Origin: Candidatus Promineifilaceae bacterium
Lineage (GTDB): Bacteria > Chloroflexota > Anaerolineae > Promineifilales > Promineifilaceae
DNA: 64,000 nt
Direction: 5' to 3'
Assembly (NCBI GenBank): GCA_049650305.1
Contig: JBARZW010000065.1
Span: 10,585-74,584, forward strand
Below, piece after piece: positions 1 through 43,756 of this stretch. Positions within the stretch are counted from its first letter, which is position 1. Every line of letters starts with the position of its first letter. Both the position numbers and the translations under genes were made by a program. Below the pieces are notes generated by a model. The model did not search any database. It was not told the DNA's origin and saw only the letters and a program-made list of their open reading frames with translations.

Positions 1-789
1 ACCACCACCGATAGCCAGCGCTTTATCCGAGATGGTGAAGCAGGCGGAGACATCAGATCTGCTGTCGATATCGCCGATTTTCAGTCCAGCAGGTACTTCG
101 GTGCCGGGTGCGATCAAACCCCGAATGACGCCATCGAAGGGCGCGATTATTGCCTTCTTCTCTATAGCGCCAATGATCGCGCCCGCCTTCACCAGATCGC
201 CAATTTCATGCCCCCACTCGACAACACCGCCGGCTGGTGAGCGAAGGACCCTCTCTGCTAATTTACCCCCAACTAGACCAGGTGTGCCCGTGTCTGGATG
301 CGCCTTCCCCTCCCAGATCACGCGGCCGAGGCGATGCCCACGCATCGTTTCAATCACCGCGTGGCAATCGATACCGGCCGTAAAACCGGGGCCTAGGGCG
401 ATCACTGTCTTTGCCTGACTGAGATGGGTATCGATATTGCGTTTTGCCATTCGTGCATCAATAATCACAGCATTGGTGGGAGAAGGATCTGTCGATCCTT
501 TTGTCTTCCCACCGGCTCTCAGGACTTGGTCAGGTAATTGGGGAGAAACTAGGACTGGGATGATGTCCTTGAGGTCCATCTCCGATGCTTCAGTGAAATT
601 CTGGGCGACCCGTCCTACGAGCCCTTCTATCTCCACCTCCCCTTCGTGCACGGCCGCGGCTAGAGAGACCTTACGTCGGACGACAAGCGGCCAGGGTAGT
701 TCCAATACGATTATTGGGAATCCAACCCTGTGGAGGCGATAAGCCACACCAGTAGCCAGATCACCGCCCCCTCGGATGATAACTCGCAT
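1..789 (-). CDS. YqeB/EF2563-family selenium-dependent molybdenum hydroxylase system protein (C-terminus cut by window edge)
   Basis: Absent from the ORF track because there is no stop inside the window. My minus-strand translation from ATG 789 (alternative ATG 804) reads MRVIIRGGGDLATGVAYRLHRVGFPIIVLELPWPLVVRRKVSLAAAVHEGEVEIEG...IIAPFDGVIRGLIAPGTEVPAGLKIGDID and stays open to position 1. The GGGDLATG N-terminus and lipoyl-like C-terminal pattern match my recollection of this family, and the gene sits beside a Mo-hydroxylase operon. Confidence 0.6.
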   Translation of the reverse strand, partial: MRVIIRGGGDLATGVAYRLHRVGFPIIVLELPWPLVVRRKVSLAAAVHEGEVEIEGLVGRVAQNFTEASEMDLKDIIPVLVSPQLPDQVLRAGGKTKGSTDPSPTNAVIIDARMAKRNIDTHLSQAKTVIALGPGFTAGIDCHAVIETMRGHRLGRVIWEGKAHPDTGTPGLVGGKLAERVLRSPAGGVVEWGHEIGDLVKAGAIIGAIEKKAIIAPFDGVIRGLIAPGTEVPAGLKIGDIDSRSDVSACFTISDKALAIGGG

Positions 790-15031: not shown

Positions 15032-15871
15032 ATGATTCGAGTAAATAGGATCCAGACAGTAATCATTTTTGGCTTGCTAACGATGGGCTTACTGGCGACA
15101 GCTTGCAGCCCATCGGCCGAGAAGCTCAATAAAGATGGGAATGAGGCGTATGCCGAAGAAGCCTATCTGGAAGCGCTGGCAGCATACGAAGCCGCCCTGA
15201 TTGAGTCTCCTGAATTGGCTGAGCCATATTACAACGCTGCTAATACCCTCTACCGGGAAGGCGCGTTTTCAGAAGCCACAATGTTGATGCAGGAGGCACT
15301 GAAGTACGCCGATGCCGATTCTTTGGAGCAAAGCAGTTTCTACAATACGGGAAACTCTTCCTTCAATCTTCAAGAGTGGGAGGCGGCGATAGCGGCATAC
15401 ACTGAGGCACTACTGCGAAATCCTGATGATCAGGATGCCAAATACAATCTCGAGCTCGCTTTGCAGCAACTGCAGCAGCAGCAACAAGAACAACAGCAAG
15501 AAGAGAATGAGGAGCAGCAAGAAGAGCAGTCTCAGGATGGAGAAAGTCAAGAGGACGAGCAGCAGGACCAGTCTCAAAGCGGTCAAGATCAACAAGATCA
15601 GGATCAAGTAGACCAGGACCAGCAACAAGATGATCAATCGTCCGAAGGCGATGAAAACCAGGAGCAGGACAACGACGACGGTCAGCCGCAAGATGAGGAG
15701 GGTTCCGATGAGCAAGAGAGCCCAAGCCAGATGCCCCAGCCGGGGCAGCGAATGACCGCTGAACAAGCCCGTCAGCTGCTGGCGGCAATCGCCCAAGATA
15801 CCGAAACGCTTCAGGAGAGACTTGGTCAGATATTTATCGCCCCGCCGATCCCGCCCGCTCAGGACTGGTAA
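15032..15871 (+). CDS. batC: TPR-repeat lipoprotein, BatC-like, with a long acidic Q/E/D-rich tail
   Basis: Lipobox LATAC, TPR-like YYNAANTLYREG and AIAAYTEALLRNPDD, then roughly 100 aa of Q/E/D low complexity. Confidence 0.75.
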   Translation: MIRVNRIQTVIIFGLLTMGLLATACSPSAEKLNKDGNEAYAEEAYLEALAAYEAALIESPELAEPYYNAANTLYREGAFSEATMLMQEALKYADADSLEQSSFYNTGNSSFNLQEWEAAIAAYTEALLRNPDDQDAKYNLELALQQLQQQQQEQQQEENEEQQEEQSQDGESQEDEQQDQSQSGQDQQDQDQVDQDQQQDDQSSEGDENQEQDNDDGQPQDEEGSDEQESPSQMPQPGQRMTAEQARQLLAAIAQDTETLQERLGQIFIAPPIPPAQDW

Positions 15872-15902
15872 TATCGGCATGGCCGTTGATGGAGTAAGAA
15901 CC

Positions 15903-17762
15903 ATGAAGAGAGCAAGAATTTTACTTATACCAATTCTAGCCATCATCTTGGCGGTGACAGTTGGCAGGGTCAATGCCCAATCCCCAGTATCAGCCGAGGT
16001 CGATCGAACGACTCTCAGCACCGACGAATTACTGACGTTGACCATATCAATCGATGCGTCGGCAAGCATTGACTCCCGCCCAGAAATACCCCCTCTCAAT
16101 GGCTTCGAAATCGTGGGCTCTTACAGCGGAACCCAGATGAGTATTATTAATGGAAATATGAGCGTCCAAGAGACGTATACGTATCAGTTGCGGCCGACGC
16201 AGGTAGGAAACCTGGCAATCGATTCAATTTCGGTTAACGTTAGTGGGCAGACATATCGCACCGAGCCAATCCAAATAATCGTCACTCAAGGAACTGGTGT
16301 TCCTCAACCGGCTAATCCAATGGTGCCGAGTATGCCTTCGTTCCCTTCGTTCCCATCGTTACCGTCTTTTCCATCCTTGCCATCACCTTCTACCTCGCCG
16401 GCCCAACCACTAGATCCCTCTGTCGTTCCGGATCAGTTAAACGGACAGGACTTCTTCGTGGAAGCGGTCGTCGACAATCTTCGACCCTATCAGGGACAGC
16501 AGGTCGTCTATACCTTGCGATTTTTCCGGTCCGTCGCCCTTGTTGGTCAGGCAAATTACCAGACACCTAATTTCACCGGCTTCTGGACGCATACACATCC
16601 AGACCAGAGTGAATTCTCTGTTTCCAAAGCAGGACGTAATTACCAGTTGACCGAATTAAGAACCATACTCTTTCCGACGGTCGTCGGAGAAGTGACTATC
16701 GATCCCGCGAGTTTTTCTATTCCTGGTGGCTTCTTTAGCCAGAGTAAAGAGATTCTTTCAAATTCGGTTGCACTGGATGTCCAGCCTCTGCCGGATGGAG
16801 CTCCCGCGACCTTCACAGGCGCCGTCGGCCAGTTCGACATCCACACTTCGGTGGACCATCCGGAAACCAAGGTGAATGAGACTGTCACTTGGGAAGTGAC
16901 GATTAGCGGCCAAGGCAACATAGACAATCTGACCGATCCGGTTTGGCCTGAAACATCGGAGTGGAGGGCTTTTGACAGTGAAGCATCGGTAAGCACACAG
17001 ATCGCAAACAATGTATTTGGCGGCGCTCGAACCATCGAACGCGTTCTTGTGCCAACGATTTCCGGCGCCCTAACGCTCCCCTCAGTCGAGTTCCCCTATT
17101 TCGATCCTGACACCGCCCAATACGTGACTATCAGTTCAGATCCTATCGAAGTAAAGGTTGGACCTAATTCCGGAGGTTCGGCCCCTGCGATTGGTTCTCA
17201 ATCAAATTCGGTACCACCGTCGATTGTTGACCAGCAGGTGTCTGTTTCTGAGCCATCAGCGGGAATTCGGCCTAACAAACCGGCCGTGTCCACATGGGCG
17301 ATCGGCTCGCCCTTGGTGACCGATCGTTCTGGTTACTGGCTTCTTTGGGCAACGCCTTTGTTGCTAATAGCCGGTCATTTGGGTTGGCAGTGGCGTCAAC
17401 GACACCGGCATGAGACGTCCGAAATCCGTCGAACCCACCAGGCTAAAAAGGTTGCTCGTAACTCATTGAGAAAAGTAAAAAACAACGACTCCAGCAAATT
17501 CGAGACCGCCGGTCGATTTCTTTCAGAATACATTTCGACCCGGCTAAACCGATCTATCGTTGGTTTAACGCAAGCCCAGGTCTCGACATTGCTACTCGAA
17601 AGAGGGATCGACCCGCAGCTGGTTGACAGGGTTGGGCATGTCCTCACCCTCAGCGATATGGGTCGCTACGCGCCTTCATCTGGTGGTGTGGACGACGAGG
17701 ATATCGTCAGCACTGTTGAACATCTGATAGATGAACTTGACCGATCTTTCAGTCAACAATAA
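15903..17762 (+). CDS. batD: BatD-like (oxygen tolerance family) membrane protein
   Basis: Start chosen at MKRARILLIPILAIILA with GGAG upstream. It has repeated beta-rich extracytoplasmic segments, a late TM (YWLLWATPLLLIAGHL) and a cytoplasmic tail. The track ORF begins at 15822 inside batC. Confidence 0.75.
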   Translation: MKRARILLIPILAIILAVTVGRVNAQSPVSAEVDRTTLSTDELLTLTISIDASASIDSRPEIPPLNGFEIVGSYSGTQMSIINGNMSVQETYTYQLRPTQVGNLAIDSISVNVSGQTYRTEPIQIIVTQGTGVPQPANPMVPSMPSFPSFPSLPSFPSLPSPSTSPAQPLDPSVVPDQLNGQDFFVEAVVDNLRPYQGQQVVYTLRFFRSVALVGQANYQTPNFTGFWTHTHPDQSEFSVSKAGRNYQLTELRTILFPTVVGEVTIDPASFSIPGGFFSQSKEILSNSVALDVQPLPDGAPATFTGAVGQFDIHTSVDHPETKVNETVTWEVTISGQGNIDNLTDPVWPETSEWRAFDSEASVSTQIANNVFGGARTIERVLVPTISGALTLPSVEFPYFDPDTAQYVTISSDPIEVKVGPNSGGSAPAIGSQSNSVPPSIVDQQVSVSEPSAGIRPNKPAVSTWAIGSPLVTDRSGYWLLWATPLLLIAGHLGWQWRQRHRHETSEIRRTHQAKKVARNSLRKVKNNDSSKFETAGRFLSEYISTRLNRSIVGLTQAQVSTLLLERGIDPQLVDRVGHVLTLSDMGRYAPSSGGVDDEDIVSTVEHLIDELDRSFSQQ

Positions 17763-34708: not shown

Positions 34709-36484
34709 CTAGTGACTGGCGCCGGCTTTCGTCTTTCTGATAGTCAATCGGTCCAGTAATGCTTCTGTGATGGCTACGCCTTCCATTGGTGAAAGGCCAA
34801 GGATGTCAAACACTACGGCGTTAAGCGCTTGCCAATCGGCTTGCCTGGCCTCGTCATAAACGCTGCCTACGGGACGATCGAGAAGAGCCTCAAAAGCAGA
34901 GACCAGTTCATCCGCCTGTACGGAAGGGAGGTATCTTGGATCGGGGAGCAACAGGCTTTCAACCTCATAGGTTGCCAACCAAAGGACCCCTTCGCCGAAA
35001 TTCACCCGCCCATTCAACTCTAACTGTAGCTCAAACCAGGCACTGTTAAGAAGCGCGGCGGCTGCATTCAGGGCGATACCATCGGCCAAATAGGTCTGGT
35101 ATAGTTGTTGATCCACAGCCATACTGCCATCAACTACCGGGGCGAAATGACGCTCCCAGATGCCTTTTGCCAGTAAGAGTGGGGCTTCCTCCTGCTGCGG
35201 AAGGTAATACCAGGGTCGACGCCCTCTGCAGGTTGTTCGCTGATGGAAGCCCTGGCTTTCTCCCCATAGGATATACTCGCCAACGGCCGTTCCTTTTAGC
35301 CGGTCATCTGGACCGACCGATAACAATTCAAGGTCACAATCGCCGGCACTCACTTTTCTAGCGTTGGTATTGCGAAAGGATTTGATCAAGGGTTTGCGGT
35401 ATGAATCCTCAATTTCCCATTCATCAACCGTTTTCTGATTGAGATAGAAGAATGAATTAGCGCCCGTTGTGTAGCCTCTCCTGACGGTGGCCCAGCTCTT
35501 AAAAGGGTGCAATTCGACCGCCTGTGTCCGTTGCAGGAGGACTGTTGGCGCTCTCAGGATATAGCCCCACTTCTCTGCCGGCGCCAACCCCTGCTGCATT
35601 ACTCCTCGCGTAGTGATGGCCTCGCCTTCGAAAGCATCCTCGGACACAATGGGTGTGATGAGGCTATCCAGGAATGGAAGGCGCCGGCTGTCATCCTCCT
35701 TATATGGGATTAGATTTCGCAGAGGGCTGCGAACCCGGACCATCTTTACCTGATTAGCGGCTCGCTTGTCAGCATCGCTGCACTTTTCAAGGATCACCAG
35801 ACAGGTGTTAATCTTGGCCTGGCTGAACCAACGTTCGACACTCGATTCGATGAGAGCGATGATCTTATAATGCTCAAGCAGGAACTGTTTAAGCCGTTCG
35901 CCATATGCCACGTCGAGCCAACTGTTTGGAACGACGAATCCGAATCGACCGCCTTCTCGCAAAAACTGGGTTCCATGCAAAAAGAAATAAGCGTGAAGAC
36001 CAGCTCTCCTACTGAGGGTTTGACTATCTGATCTTCCCTTTCTCCGGTAAGGTACAATGCCATCCGTGTCGTCGAACATGCTCAACTGCTGTGCGAATTG
36101 ACGTCGAATCCGTTGGTCCTTTTCTATCCAGCCGATCCATTCCGCCCTGGTATAAGGTGGGTTGCCGACAATGGCGTCAAAAAGCCCATCCGGCCAAGGT
36201 TGCATCTCGAAGAAGTTGCGTCCGATGATGTGCGCCTCGGGAACAACCTCCTGAGCATGGGCGGCAGCTTCCGAATCAAGCTCCACCCCCCACAATCTAG
36301 GGTTCGACTTCCGGCTAGGATCAAGCCACCGCTGCATCTGAGCGGCTCTGGCCAATATCGCGCCGTTTCCACAGCTGGGATCCAGCACACGATCTTCGGG
36401 ACGTCTCAGGCAAAAACCCAACAACAGATCTGCTACGTCGACGGGCGTTTCAAATTGCCCGTAAGCAAGTTGTTTGTCTGGCAT
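34709..36484 (-). CDS. N6-adenine DNA methyltransferase (gamma-class motif order, TaqI/Eco57I-like with a C-terminal recognition domain)
   Basis: Motif I VLDPSCGNGAIL is followed by motif IV GNPPYTRAEW. 591 aa, and I see no nuclease-like domain. Confidence 0.85.
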   Translation of the reverse strand: MPDKQLAYGQFETPVDVADLLLGFCLRRPEDRVLDPSCGNGAILARAAQMQRWLDPSRKSNPRLWGVELDSEAAAHAQEVVPEAHIIGRNFFEMQPWPDGLFDAIVGNPPYTRAEWIGWIEKDQRIRRQFAQQLSMFDDTDGIVPYRRKGRSDSQTLSRRAGLHAYFFLHGTQFLREGGRFGFVVPNSWLDVAYGERLKQFLLEHYKIIALIESSVERWFSQAKINTCLVILEKCSDADKRAANQVKMVRVRSPLRNLIPYKEDDSRRLPFLDSLITPIVSEDAFEGEAITTRGVMQQGLAPAEKWGYILRAPTVLLQRTQAVELHPFKSWATVRRGYTTGANSFFYLNQKTVDEWEIEDSYRKPLIKSFRNTNARKVSAGDCDLELLSVGPDDRLKGTAVGEYILWGESQGFHQRTTCRGRRPWYYLPQQEEAPLLLAKGIWERHFAPVVDGSMAVDQQLYQTYLADGIALNAAAALLNSAWFELQLELNGRVNFGEGVLWLATYEVESLLLPDPRYLPSVQADELVSAFEALLDRPVGSVYDEARQADWQALNAVVFDILGLSPMEGVAITEALLDRLTIRKTKAGASH

Positions 36485-36665
36485 GGCAACCTCGAATCAG
36501 CTACGACGAAACCATTTGATACATGTGGGTCGGCTCATTATACTCCACGGTATGCACAGGCAAAAAGAGTTTCCGTCTCAACCTGCACCAGGTCGTCTGC
36601 TGGTAGGAGAGCCTTGTGGCACCTAGCAGCCCGTCAGGTGAGAATCAGAGGATGATCCGGCCGAT

Positions 36666-37136
36666 ATGAGTGACAACGAAACCAAACTATCTCAGCGGGA
36701 CTTCTTGCGCACGCTGCCTGATGCCTTGCTTCCGCAACTACCGGAACCATTGCAGGGCATCAAAGTCAGGCAGCCATGGCGCTATCTGGTCCAATTTCAC
36801 TACGGTGAGCCTTGGCTTCACTACGAGGTGTCAAGAACCATACCGCGTGGTGGTTACGAGGTGGGTTTCCACTGCGAATCTCGCGATAAAGATCTTAACC
36901 ACTATCTGCTTCTCGGCTTTAGACAGCACTTATTTGAAATAAAGGACGAACTGGGGGATAGCATTGAAGCAGAGATGTGGGACCGGGGTTGGACGAAAAT
37001 TTACGAAGTTATTGCCGACGAGATATTGACGACCACTTACCAGCAACTCGTCGTCGCCAGGTTGGCTAAGATTATCATCTGCCTGCATCCTATCTATGTC
37101 GAGCTCAGAGGACAAATTGCCCGAATATATCGATAA
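36666..37136 (+). CDS. Hypothetical protein (156 aa)
   Basis: Clean ORF divergent from the methyltransferase. No family recognised with confidence, though there is a vague resemblance to small domains found near R-M genes. Confidence 0.5.
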   Translation: MSDNETKLSQRDFLRTLPDALLPQLPEPLQGIKVRQPWRYLVQFHYGEPWLHYEVSRTIPRGGYEVGFHCESRDKDLNHYLLLGFRQHLFEIKDELGDSIEAEMWDRGWTKIYEVIADEILTTTYQQLVVARLAKIIICLHPIYVELRGQIARIYR

Positions 37137-37240
37137 TGGCTGACAGGAGTCAGCTGGCTGACAGGAGTCAACGGCCAACAGGAGTTGGCTTCTGACAGGA
37201 GTCGACGGCTGATAGGCGTCAGCGGCTGATAGGAATCAGC
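37137..37240. repeat. Tandem array of six 16-18 nt hairpin units with an AGGA (AGGC in unit 5) tetraloop
   Basis: Units are at 37137-54, 37155-72, 37173-90, 37191-206, 37207-23 and 37224-40. Perfect 6-bp stems are GCTGAC/GTCAGC, GCCAAC/GTTGGC and GCTGAT/ATCAGC. The array fills the whole convergent intergenic space. Confidence 0.85.
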
Positions 37241-37246
37241 TTGGCA

Positions 37247-38581
37247 TCAAGGCCACATTCGGTTAATTGTTCGCGGATAGGGGCTTGTCTCGCGAATATG
37301 GGGTAGTCCGCAGATCCATCGTACAGCCCTTTCGAGACCCATGCCAAAGCCACTATGGGGGACCGTCCCGTACCGTCGTAAGTCGATGTACCAGCCATAG
37401 TTGCCCATGGGCAGTTCGTGGCGCTTAATGGCCTCGATCAAGACATCGGGATCGCTCATCCGCTCGCTACCACCAATGATCTCACCATACCCTTCGGGGG
37501 CTAGCAAGTCGACGCTTTTACAGAGCTCCGGCCGACCCGGCCAAGGTTCCATATAGAAGGCTTTCACAGCAGTGGGATACCCGTAGACGAATACCGGCTT
37601 GTCGAACTGCCCGGCCAAGGCTGTTTCATGGGGTGACCCGAAGTCTTCACCCCACGAAATCTCCAGCAATTCCCTTTCTTCCGGATCCTCTATACTGTCT
37701 CTCAACGCGTGCAATCGATCGATGGCCTCGTCATAACTGATTCGGGGAAAGGGCGATCGTACATTCTCCAGGGCTGAAGTATCTCGTTCCAACATCTCCA
37801 GTTCCACGCGGCGTTCTTGTAGCGTCGTCTGGACGATGTAGGTGACAAATGCTTCCTCAAAATCCATCATATCGTCCAGGTCAAAGAAAGCCATCTCAGG
37901 CTCGACCATCCAGAACTCCGCCAGGTGGCGGCGAGTCTTCGATTTCTCCGCCCGAAACGTCGGACCGAAGCAATAGACTTTGCCGAAGGCCATGATATTT
38001 GCTTCGTTGTACAGCTGTCCTGTTTGGGCTAAATAGGCCGTCTGGTCGAAGTATTCGACCTCGAAGAGCGAACTTGTTCCCTCTACCGCTGAAGGAGTGA
38101 TTATCGGTGTGTCTATGTTTAGAAAACCGTTGTCATCAAGGAAATCGATGATGGATCTCTTGACTGTGGTTCGAATGCGCATGATCGCCCATTGTAGACT
38201 CGATCGCAGCCACAGATGGCGCTGGTCCATGAGAAATTCTACGCCGTGTTCTTTTGGCCCAATCGGATAATCAACAGCGTTCTGGTAAATCTCAATTTTC
38301 TGGATCCCTATTTCATAGCCGCCGGGAATTCCCGGGGCGCGCGCGTCCGCCTTCACCATTCCAGTGATACTCAGCGACGACTCTTGACCTAAACGTTTGA
38401 TCTCCTCGAATACGTCGTCACCAAGATCAGGCCGGAATGCTACACATTGAACAATACCCGTTCCATCACGAAGCCGAAGGAATTGAATCTTTCCCTTCCC
38501 GGTCTTGAGATAAAGCCAGCCGCGAATGGTTACTTCCTGTCCGACGTGCTCTGTAATTTTGTCAATTGTTATTGTGCTCAT
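37247..38581 (-). CDS. asnS: Asparagine--tRNA ligase
   Basis: Class IIb synthetase of 444 aa. Motif 2 region FRAEKSKTRRHLAEFWMVEPEMAF is the AsnRS-type EFWM.EPE pattern; motif 3 is GFGMGLER. Confidence 0.85.
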   Translation of the reverse strand: MSTITIDKITEHVGQEVTIRGWLYLKTGKGKIQFLRLRDGTGIVQCVAFRPDLGDDVFEEIKRLGQESSLSITGMVKADARAPGIPGGYEIGIQKIEIYQNAVDYPIGPKEHGVEFLMDQRHLWLRSSLQWAIMRIRTTVKRSIIDFLDDNGFLNIDTPIITPSAVEGTSSLFEVEYFDQTAYLAQTGQLYNEANIMAFGKVYCFGPTFRAEKSKTRRHLAEFWMVEPEMAFFDLDDMMDFEEAFVTYIVQTTLQERRVELEMLERDTSALENVRSPFPRISYDEAIDRLHALRDSIEDPEERELLEISWGEDFGSPHETALAGQFDKPVFVYGYPTAVKAFYMEPWPGRPELCKSVDLLAPEGYGEIIGGSERMSDPDVLIEAIKRHELPMGNYGWYIDLRRYGTVPHSGFGMGLERAVRWICGLPHIRETSPYPRTINRMWP

Positions 38582-38878
38582 GATTTGTTCCTAATGAATG
38601 GGATCAGCGGGTCGTATTCTAACAACTTCGTCGAGTGATTCAAGTGAAGTTGAACCTCAGAGCGCCATAAAGATCCAGAGATGGGTAAGAATAGAACGGT
38701 AGATCAGCTGCGATTCGGGTAAGAGATGGCCTGCCCGAGGTTTCGAGACAATGGCCAATTTGCTTAATCGGTAGAACAAAAATCGGCCGACTGGTGCTCC
38801 ATATCCCCACATGTCACTAGAAATCCGACTCTTTTCCTGAGTATGGGCAACAAGTGCAATTTCCAACAAAAGGCACTG

Positions 38879-42172: not shown

Positions 42173-42207
42173 AAAAAAAACAGAGGGGCAAGATATCTTG
42201 CCCCTCT
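42173..42207 (-). terminator. Rho-independent terminator of the secreted-protein gene
   Basis: Perfect palindrome AGAGGGGCAAGAT/ATCTTGCCCCTCT (42182-42207), followed on the minus strand by T8 (A8 at 42173-42180). It lies 35 nt past the stop at 42242. Confidence 0.8.
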
Positions 42208-42241: not shown

Positions 42242-43756
42242 CTAGGGTTGTGGCGCAGCGTTGTATGAGCTTGCGCGATCTGTATAGACAATGTTAGCCG
42301 TGGCTACAAACTCCGCAGTCGCGTCGCCTATCTTGACGGTGATGCCACCAATGAAATTGGTGCCAAGGGCGTTAAAATCGCTCGCAGCTAGGTCACCACC
42401 ATTGTTAGTGTTCAGTCCAACGGCTGCGCCTGGCGCGAGGTTACTTGGTAACTGGTTACCGGTAAAAGACGCTACTGTAGTGCCGGCTGTATCGACATAC
42501 TCAATGAGAATGTCCGATCGAGCGATTGTACCAGTACCGACGTTCTGGAGGTTAAGCGAGGACCATTGTTTCAAGCCACCTGATCCGTAATTCAATCGAT
42601 ATTGAGCCGGTAGGAACAAGACACTGTCCGCTTTCTCTTGCGGAATCAAGGCGTACATCGTCTGCTTTGCTTCCTTGCCCCAGCGAGTAATGCCTGTTCC
42701 AACGAGAGGAATATTGTTATCAGAAATGATCTTGACCGATCCATCCCAGTCTCCATTGGGAAGCAGAGCATTAAACACATTAGGATTGAAATCTCCACCA
42801 TTATAGTTGTTCGCGCCGACTGCTGAACCAGGTGCGATGGTCCAGGTAAGCGTTAGATCTAGGGCGCCTGTATCACGATTGTAATACTCAATCGTGATAG
42901 GAGCCGACACGGTAGAGCTGGTATTCTGGATATTCACTGCCGAAAGAAGGGTTGGATCGCTACCTTGAACAATCGGCTGGCCTTGATTATACCGGAAGGA
43001 TGAGGGAGCGTATAGCACCGTACCCTGGTCACTGTTGTTTAGCGCCTGATAAGCGGACGATTCCTGAATCCGTGTGGCAGTCGACGCCCCAGCCAGCAAG
43101 TTTCCATTAACTGACGAAACAGTTACTGACCCGTCCCTGTAGTTAGCAGGAATGGTGCCACCGGGCCAGTCAGCAGGATTGCAACCGCAGTAGGTCTTCG
43201 AGCCATTGGCACCAAGTGTATCGGTTTTCGTGCCGATGAACGTGCCATCTCGCCTGAAGAAATCCAGCTCAATTGTAGCGGGAGTATTTTCAGTATTCTG
43301 GACGGTGATCCGGGATACTATGAACTCGAAAGCCCAAAACGAGGGGAAGAAAATGGTATCGGTACCCACAGATGCTCCGTTGTAAGCACCCTGTGTCGTA
43401 CCGTCAGAGGCGCCGGAAACTGAAGTATTCCGTATGCTGGTGACCGCTGCCACCGGCCGATCGGATGAAATCACCGCTGCGCCCTGGAATCCTGGGGGAA
43501 GAGGCTCAGCCTCAGTCTTTACCTCTACTACTGATTTAGGCGATATTGTTACCACTGCATTTGTATAAACAAGGCTACCGGCCTGGTCGTAGTAATCAAT
43601 CTGCACAGTAGCAGTTTCACCGGTTCCAGTCGCGAGATTCTGGAGAATCGCATTTGTCACCGAGACGCCCGGATCTGGAAAAGATCCTTGCGCACCAACA
43701 ATACCGACGGCAACTAATAAGAGCACCACTATAAAAATAAGGGTTCCTTTCTTCAT
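42242..43756 (-). CDS. Secreted protein with four internal repeats of about 115 aa (unknown family)
   Basis: Signal peptide MKKGTLIFIVVLLLVAVGIVGAQG. A repeated core [LIV]QN-x7-9-[IL]-x-[YFIL]-[YFV] occurs four times (ILQNLATGTGETATVQIDYY, VQNTENTPATIELDFF, IQNTSSTVSAPITIEYY, LQNVGTGTIARSDILIEYV). AGGAGG RBS. Confidence 0.75.
   Translation of the reverse strand: MKKGTLIFIVVLLLVAVGIVGAQGSFPDPGVSVTNAILQNLATGTGETATVQIDYYDQAGSLVYTNAVVTISPKSVVEVKTEAEPLPPGFQGAAVISSDRPVAAVTSIRNTSVSGASDGTTQGAYNGASVGTDTIFFPSFWAFEFIVSRITVQNTENTPATIELDFFRRDGTFIGTKTDTLGANGSKTYCGCNPADWPGGTIPANYRDGSVTVSSVNGNLLAGASTATRIQESSAYQALNNSDQGTVLYAPSSFRYNQGQPIVQGSDPTLLSAVNIQNTSSTVSAPITIEYYNRDTGALDLTLTWTIAPGSAVGANNYNGGDFNPNVFNALLPNGDWDGSVKIISDNNIPLVGTGITRWGKEAKQTMYALIPQEKADSVLFLPAQYRLNYGSGGLKQWSSLNLQNVGTGTIARSDILIEYVDTAGTTVASFTGNQLPSNLAPGAAVGLNTNNGGDLAASDFNALGTNFIGGITVKIGDATAEFVATANIVYTDRASSYNAAPQP

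Follow-up and report, generated by a model that had tools for sequence, protein, structure and literature searches.

The REP (repetitive extragenic palindromic) and BIME (bacterial interspersed mosaic element) repeats of Enterobacteria and Pseudomonads, REPINs included, are imperfect extragenic palindromes that lie in 3' untranslated regions (UTRs), especially between convergent genes. They occur alone or clustered (REPs in groups of 1–12), form hairpins on either strand, lack poly-U and vary among strains in presence and copy number. In E. coli, REP clusters of 1–12 palindromic units in 3' UTRs, without poly-U and variable between strains, are partial Rho-dependent terminators and mRNA stabilisers (bioRxiv 10.64898/2026.03.23.713779). 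A 64-kb stretch of DNA with 51% G+C from a Candidatus Promineifilaceae bacterium (hereafter the window) harbors an array of short hairpins that is alike in each of these structural features and fills the spacer between asnS and a convergent gene of 156 codons. It is somewhat more probable than its alternatives taken together (about 0.55) that the array is a lineage-specific, REP/BIME-like minisatellite of palindromic units, likely serving as a stack of 3'-end hairpins for both converging genes. The units have the consensus G-[G N N G A C]-RGGA-[G T C N' N' C] and are members of a family that occurs in Candidatus Promineifilaceae (Chloroflexota, Anaerolineae).

Other described systems resemble the array in part. 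Minisatellites, or variable-number tandem repeats (VNTRs), such as the mycobacterial interspersed repetitive units (MIRUs), are also short intergenic tandem units whose copy number differs between close strains. MIRUs are 40–100 bp long, some with small open reading frames (ORFs); each unit in the window, unlike a MIRU, is itself a hairpin with its pairing kept by covariation. Bidirectional intrinsic terminators are G+C-rich hairpins like those that here exactly fill the spacer between the converging stops, but the array lacks a U-tract on either side and its hairpin is multiplied up to six times. The regulatory RNAs CsrB/CsrC and RsmX/Y/Z carry several GGA motifs in hairpin loops at a spacing of ~18 nt, as does the array, which an earlier note on this DNA had proposed to be a CsrB/Rsm-type sponge.

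The spacer (37137–37246, 110 nt) runs from the stop of the 156-aa gene to that of asnS and is taken up by six hairpin units of 17–18 nt, arranged head to tail. The features of the locus are:

36666..37136, plus strand: conserved hypothetical gene (156 aa), its TAA stop ending at 37136
37138..37154: unit 1, GGCTGACAGGAGTCAGC, G+GCTGAC-AGGA-GTCAGC; perfect 6-bp stem; covariance score 28.8 bits
37156..37172: unit 2, GGCTGACAGGAGTCAAC, GCTGAC-AGGA-GTCAAC; 25.9 bits
37173..37189: unit 3, GGCCAACAGGAGTTGGC, GCCAAC-AGGA-GTTGGC; perfect stem; 26.9 bits
37190..37206: unit 4, TTCTGACAGGAGTCGAC, TCTGAC-AGGA-GTCGAC; 18 bits
37207..37223: unit 5, GGCTGATAGGCGTCAGC, GCTGAT-AGGC-GTCAGC; T.G wobble; 22.4 bits
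37224..37240: unit 6, GGCTGATAGGAATCAGC, GCTGAT-AGGA-ATCAGC; perfect stem with a U.A closing pair; 25.5 bits
37241..37246: tail TTGGCA, 6 nt between unit 6 and the asnS stop codon
37247..38581, minus strand: asnS (asparagine-tRNA ligase), stop codon at 37247–37249, converging on the array

The stop codon of the 156-aa gene lies 1 nt before the array and 2 nt before the stem of unit 1. Since it directly precedes the array, the row of AGGA loops is the 3' UTR of that gene; on the asnS strand the loops read UCCU. The AsnS protein matches NCBI MGB3713480.1, from a MAG (metagenome-assembled genome) of a Candidatus Promineifilaceae bacterium, without a single difference, and its homologs come from Promineifilaceae, Anaerolineae and Chloroflexota. 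The unit 1 hairpin has a stability of -9.7 kcal/mol on either strand, and an extra T at 37155 raises the period to 18 after it. Unit 3 differs from unit 1 by two swapped base pairs. The anatomy given in the earlier note, with AGGA loops in five units and AGGC in one, perfect stems in units 1, 3 and 6 and the wobble in unit 5, is borne out, except in two details. A 6-bp stem was claimed for each unit, but the stem of unit 2 is interrupted on the plus strand by a C.A mismatch, read on the minus strand as a G.U wobble (-3.9 versus -7.4 kcal/mol), and unit 4, the weakest, has a stem of only 3–4 bp (about -2.4 kcal/mol). Likewise, the reading ACAGGAGU, given for every unit, holds for units 1–4, whereas unit 5, the sole unit in the window without a GGA loop, reads AUAGGCGU and unit 6 reads AUAGGAAU.

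Several independent measures indicate that the array is real. Tandem Repeats Finder places it at 37138–37240 with a period of 17, 6.0 copies and a score of 106, and finds no other such array in the window. A covariance model of the unit scores only the six array sites in the 64 kb (18–28.8 bits), the next-best site reaching 15.2 bits at an E-value of 0.12. The 16-mer consensus, searched with up to three mismatches, matches five times in the window where 0.55 matches are expected, every match falling inside the array. Folding of the array gives z-scores of -4.0 (plus strand) and -5.0 (minus strand). No solitary unit was found elsewhere in the window by mismatch search, hairpin pattern search or covariance model. 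A coding repeat was rejected; the period of 17 is not a multiple of three and the array sits between two stop codons.

Pairing within the unit has been preserved while its sequence changed. Pairs were counted for the structure.((((((....)))))) over 17 distinct units, taken from the window, the relatives L001 and L002 and the Promineifilum loci L029 and L167, with 500 shuffles and slid alignments as controls. Across these units 92% of stem cells are paired, and both partners have changed in four of the six stem pairs (13 cells); a further 11 pair types occur. None of the 500 shuffles attains these values, and the slid controls pair at 4–55%. Intermediates with U.G pairs are present (GAT...GTC leading to GAT...ATC), and between unit 5 of the window and unit 3 of L002 a T.A pair is replaced by C.G at columns 4/15. 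The compensatory changes seen by the earlier note within the window are thus upheld across relatives. These patterns support selection, or some other mechanism, acting to keep intrastrand pairing. The loop is the best-conserved part of the unit. Over 21 units the loops are AGGA (12), GGGA (6), AGGC, AAGA and ACGA (1 each), so that RGGA accounts for 18/21, and column identity falls from 89% in the loop to 83% in the inner and 74% in the outer stem. Summed over 20 units, the hairpins are about as stable on one strand as on the other (-138 versus -128 kcal/mol), and a two-directional or DNA-level constraint fits this near equality. G.U wobbles are commoner on the plus strand (~11 versus ~5), a difference that is not significant.

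The same locus in relatives shows a kept neighbourhood and a spacer that is not kept. In the conserved arrangement asnS converges on the 156-aa gene, which is followed by an Eco57I-like methyltransferase gene and an EndoIII-like gene. Ordered by nucleotide identity of asnS to the window, the relatives have the following spacers:

L001, 99.85%: six units
L202, 99.5%: contig broken at the array, its last bases being the asnS stop
L203 and L205, 92%: 22-nt spacer with one unit, GAGCCGACGGGAGTTGGAATGG
L002, 90%: five units
L204, 82%: three units and a 35-nt insert
L003, L194, L195 and L196, 71–78%: no unit

Change is concentrated in the array. Of the 25 differences between the window and L001 over 1938 nt, the 62-nt centre of the array holds 18 and the 1335-nt asnS gene only two; unit 6 is identical in both strains. 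Units 3–6 of the window align in order with units 1–4 of L002, with 1, 3, 6 and 2 differences, and unit 3 of the window is orthologous to unit 1 of L002 and unit 4 of L001. This positional homology between the window and L002 indicates that units persist and diverge at a roughly neutral rate, and that whole units are gained or lost at the ends. In L204, unit 1 is inverted (GCTGAATCCCCTCAGC, with a GGGA loop on the other strand) and unit 2 has an ACGA loop. The spacer of L003 has one unrelated 7-bp hairpin in place of the array, and a TTGG-like tail is found in L001, L203 and L204 as in the window. The minimal state at the locus is the single hairpin in the 22-nt convergent spacer of L203 and L205, which is predicted to fold at -6.2 kcal/mol on the plus strand and -0.6 kcal/mol on the minus strand. 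This state resembles a minimal bidirectional terminator, and one hairpin cannot act as a sponge but looks like a 3'-end hairpin shared by the two genes.

Members of the unit family are also scattered through the sister genus Promineifilum, where GGACGACAGGAGTCGTC, almost identical to the unit of the window, occurs at four or more unrelated loci. Its period (17 nt) and its G-G..GAC-AGGA-GTC..C frame are those of the window unit, and two compensatory pairs set it apart. A search for three phased RCRGGAGT loops in 185,579 species genomes returned, among the matches listed, mostly coding repeats and one true analogue. In this analogue, the Promineifilum metagenome-assembled genome (MAG) locus L029, at least three copies of GGACGACAGGAGTCGTC stand right after the stop of a gene for a 703-aa ATPase/helix-turn-helix protein, at the contig end. 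The metagenome scan found GGACGACAGGAGTCGTC in two identical copies each in L145, assigned to Promineifilum through an Hsp70-family gene, and L170, and beside a compensated variant, GGCGGACAGGAGTCCGC, in L167. Gene contexts and orientations differ among all three of these loci. In L145 the pair of units is central in an element of ~206 bp (88–293) with 15-nt terminal inverted repeats (ATCCGCAGATTAGGC / GCCGAATCTGCGGAT), and it shares with L170 (~1230–1337) a left arm of ~50 nt or more flanking the units. By our own reading of the sequence, GTAG-headed hairpins flank the units of L145. The element of L145 and L170 looks like a mobile element of the kind of REPINs or miniature inverted-repeat transposable elements (MITEs); in the sister genus, then, the unit would belong to dispersed MITE/REPIN-like DNA, and a related unit dispersed in this way, at one locus within an inverted-ended element, is a further likeness to those families. 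The earlier note had held that a unit scattered as a REP-like element with its GGA loop lost would speak against a sponge. Dispersal is found in the sister genus and to that extent speaks against a sponge, although the scattered copies keep the GGA loop.

At L167 (720–800), CTCGTCACT stands on either side of the two-unit array, inside a tract of CTCGCCA heptamers; these flanks may be a target-site duplication or just part of the local repeat. Most matches of the two collection scans were set aside after a check of stem pairing as unrelated collagen-like or 6-aa coding repeats with ACAGGAGT, and the scan of viral contigs gave only coding-repeat matches.

Anatomy, covariation, copy-number polymorphism and dispersal of the unit family in the sister genus are direct observations, to which a mechanism can be fitted. 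A single hairpin between the two converging stops would have been multiplied into a stack in some lineages. Units would be gained, lost and occasionally inverted by slippage, unequal exchange or template switching between near-identical palindromes, with pairing inside each unit maintained throughout. Transcription of either gene would then yield an RNA with a row of stable hairpins without U-tracts, which may reduce read-through toward the gene opposite and act as barriers to 3'-to-5' exonucleases, so that the mRNA 3' ends of both the 156-aa gene and asnS would be defined and stabilised. Terminating ribosomes may meet, or collide with, hairpins at both ends of the array, since the first hairpin starts 2 nt past one stop and the last ends 6 nt before the other; such collisions reportedly occur at REPs near stop codons. 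The reading as a shared 3'-end hairpin draws on the one-hairpin minimal state and on the lack of a U-tract terminator at a locus whose genome has canonical ones. No U-tract or terminator-like site was found on either side of the array in 36400–38800, whereas a canonical intrinsic terminator with an 11-bp stem (seven G-C pairs) and a U8 tail lies at 42207–42182 on the minus strand, downstream of the gene at 42242–43756.

Several points weigh against this interpretation. REPs are reported partial terminators and blocks to 3' exonucleases, and the terminator or stabiliser function suggested for the array rests on analogy with them, as the proposed unit turnover and transcription through the array are in turn deduced. 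The units are far shorter than classical REPs (17 versus 30–50 nt). Their order is strictly head to tail with no linker between them, in contrast to BIMEs, in which orientation alternates from unit to unit, and no conserved GTAG foot lies inside them. The loop is the most variable part of REPs but the best conserved part of this family, which a model asking for any stable hairpin does not predict; the conserved RGGA loop is the residual puzzle, and the only feature behind which a more specific role could lie. No second copy was found in the 64 kb of the window or in ~78 kb of flanking sequence from relatives, so that dispersal in the genome of origin would be an extrapolation, and no RAYT transposase (Y1_Tnp) was matched among the 14 window proteins scanned, which are only part of the window's genes. 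In addition, all of the arrays compared come from metagenome assemblies, in which short repeats can be mis-assembled. The array is therefore best filed as a very short, head-to-tail, REP/BIME-like variant in Promineifilaceae; membership in REP proper goes beyond the evidence.

If the array is such a REP/BIME-like hairpin stack, it would represent a family of palindromic repeats, very short and so far undescribed, in Promineifilaceae, a group of filamentous Chloroflexota from activated sludge about whose non-coding elements and 3'-end formation almost nothing has been described. The natural series of 0, 1, 3, 5 and 6 hairpins at one orthologous convergent pair would suit a study of how hairpin number affects read-through and mRNA stability, as is being asked at present for the REPs of E. 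coli. For strain typing, the array offers a hypervariable marker.

The main rival is a minisatellite without function, a possibility that we regard as unlikely but serious. A palindrome, seeded by a dispersed element or by an original terminator hairpin, would have been amplified by slippage and tolerated in an unconstrained spacer, its pairing kept by mutation (template switching from arm to arm within the quasi-palindrome, together with gene conversion) and not by selection. Consistent with this are the copy number of 0 to 6, the inversion of one unit around its palindromic stem, the near-neutral divergence of orthologous units (12 differences in 68 nt versus 9.7% for asnS), spacers in distant relatives that are unrelated to one another and a hairpin stability without strand preference. 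The breaks of the L001 and L202 contigs at the array are also what a polymorphic repeat would cause. Quasi-palindrome correction, however, leaves the conservation of the unpaired RGGA loop unexplained. The array state has also lasted, with positional homology of units, across ~18% nucleotide divergence of asnS, and transcription must end somehow in a convergent spacer of 22–110 nt that lacks another terminator.

The CsrB/Rsm-type sponge favoured by the earlier note now appears improbable. In this model the plus-strand RNA, whether a small RNA (sRNA) or the 3' UTR of the 156-aa gene, would use its six GGA-loop hairpins to titrate a protein of the CsrA/RsmE type or some other one with affinity for RGGA loops. 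The GGA in five of the six loops, the prevalence of RGGA across strains, a loop more conserved than the covarying stems and the slight excess of plus-strand wobbles would agree with it. So would the spacing of 17–18 nt, which is close to the optimal distance for bridging by a CsrA dimer, said to be ~18 nt between two GGA sites. Genes for csrA are reported in some Chloroflexota MAGs (PMC11650866). Against a sponge, no Rfam family, CsrB/C and RsmX/Y/Z included, matches the array: Rfam 15 gave nothing at gathering score over the window, nothing at E<=10 over 36950–37450 and no match at eight related loci. The array is not an independent transcription unit. It has no terminator, and a promoter would have to lie within the upstream coding sequence, the location of the sole promoter-like site, a weak one (9/12). 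Its tight tetraloops closed by C-G are unlike the larger loops of known CsrA/RsmE sites, which are 5–8-nt A(N)GGA(N) loops. No csrA was found in the 64-kb window by tblastn with E. coli and B. subtilis CsrA, and no link of Promineifilum to CsrA or FliW turned up in a search of the literature. The phylum also lies outside the known range of such RNAs; to our knowledge, sRNA sponges for CsrA are known only from Proteobacteria, and outside that group CsrA is antagonised by the protein FliW. The array is not conserved even among close relatives, in which copy numbers of 6, 5, 3, 1 and 0 occur. Single, absent and inverted units are hard to reconcile with a multi-site sponge under selection, and they make any sponge function dispensable, given how close some of these relatives are. 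The same unit also occurs within the MITE-like elements of Promineifilum.

A related idea, to which we give little credence, takes the conserved loop at face value. The C-RGGA-G tetraloop hairpin could be the module by which some RNA-binding protein of Promineifilaceae, CsrA-like or of a kind not yet described, recognises its RNA, with 3'-UTR arrays that would titrate or recruit the protein and a strain-specific copy number that would tune the dose. If true, this would be the first multi-site RNA sponge or platform of such a type in Chloroflexota, derived from a mobile hairpin unit.

It is very improbable that the units act as duplex DNA, each 17-bp near-palindrome being an operator-like site for a dimeric DNA-binding protein such as a roadblock to converging RNA polymerases, a BIME-like nucleoid protein or the neighbouring Eco57I-like methyltransferase. 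The units all show dyad symmetry and share an invariant GAC...GTC core, their 17-bp phasing is regular, the core GACNNNNGTC is itself palindromic, and a type II N6-adenine methyltransferase gene is 650 bp away. Yet the outer stem keeps its complementarity and not its sequence, the signature of intrastrand pairing and not of a sequence-specific duplex site, and the stems admit G.T wobbles. The same methyltransferase is found in relatives whose spacer holds a single unit or no unit, and the unit-bearing Promineifilum loci have no neighbouring methyltransferase gene. The narrower proposal of an array of restriction or methylation sites (GACNNNNGTC) for this enzyme likewise found no support, the array being missing in relatives with the same enzyme.

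A regulator on the minus strand can be given hardly any weight: the asnS 3' UTR would present six anti-Shine-Dalgarno-like CUCCU loops for pairing with the Shine-Dalgarno regions of target mRNAs, as do the C-rich loops of some Firmicute sRNAs, and its minimum-free-energy fold is indeed six independent hairpins with UCCU loops, but the one-unit state of L203 and L205 barely folds on that strand, and the volatility and inverted unit that count against a sponge count here also. Finally, a type III toxin-antitoxin array (ToxI-like) was rejected, since the 156-aa gene is widely conserved with one unit or none and its protein has no PADLOC or Pfam match and a predicted fold unlike ToxN.

The genes beside the array are better conserved than the array itself. 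The 156-aa protein has ~600 homologs across Anaerolineae at 63–92% identity, and where contigs reach far enough their genes adjoin those for the Eco57I-like N6 methyltransferase and the EndoIII-like protein. The protein has no Pfam, PADLOC or PDB sequence match. Its AlphaFold model (pLDDT 90) weakly resembles type III secretion chaperones (ExsC, Spa15 and CesT; TM ~0.44–0.5, E 0.04), and neither these sequence searches nor the model gave support to an RNA-binding or nuclease role. A further gene of this neighbourhood is:

34709–36484, minus strand: Eco57I-like type II N6-adenine DNA methyltransferase, 591 aa, with an M_Eco57I_C domain

No obvious restriction partner stands alongside this gene, and its position is conserved in relatives; it may encode an orphan methyltransferase.

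Some further repeats were encountered during these searches. In the window, tandem repeats with periods of 12, 15, 9 and 18 at 15480–15618 and 16335–16375 fall within the ORFs 15032–15871 and 15822–17762 and are probably low-complexity coding repeats. In an Anaerolineaceae MAG (L088, ~400–470, minus strand), four 18-nt tandem copies of GCGCAACAGGAGTTGCGA form AGGA-loop hairpins. These copies are in frame within a coding region, which from its translation may be holB-like, and encode SATGVA repeats. Two unrelated metagenome contigs (L161, 300–335; L191, 8850–8885) have in common an intergenic element without an Rfam match, composed of two CGCGACAGGAGTCGCG-type hairpins and then a conserved ~90 nt (AAAAYCGTAGG..CTCTTG.TTTAAGAAGAGG...GGAGGA.AACCGTCGGAGCAAAAGC). 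This element could be an undescribed structured RNA or a repeat of another taxon. In L186, direct GTGACAGGAGTCAC repeats (865–900) follow the end of an upstream ORF, presumably histidine-kinase-like from its C-terminal sequence, and inverted copies, GTCACTCCTGTCACTCCTGTCAC, stand ~100 nt further on (~975–1000), just ahead of the next ORF; these repeats look like operator-type sites.

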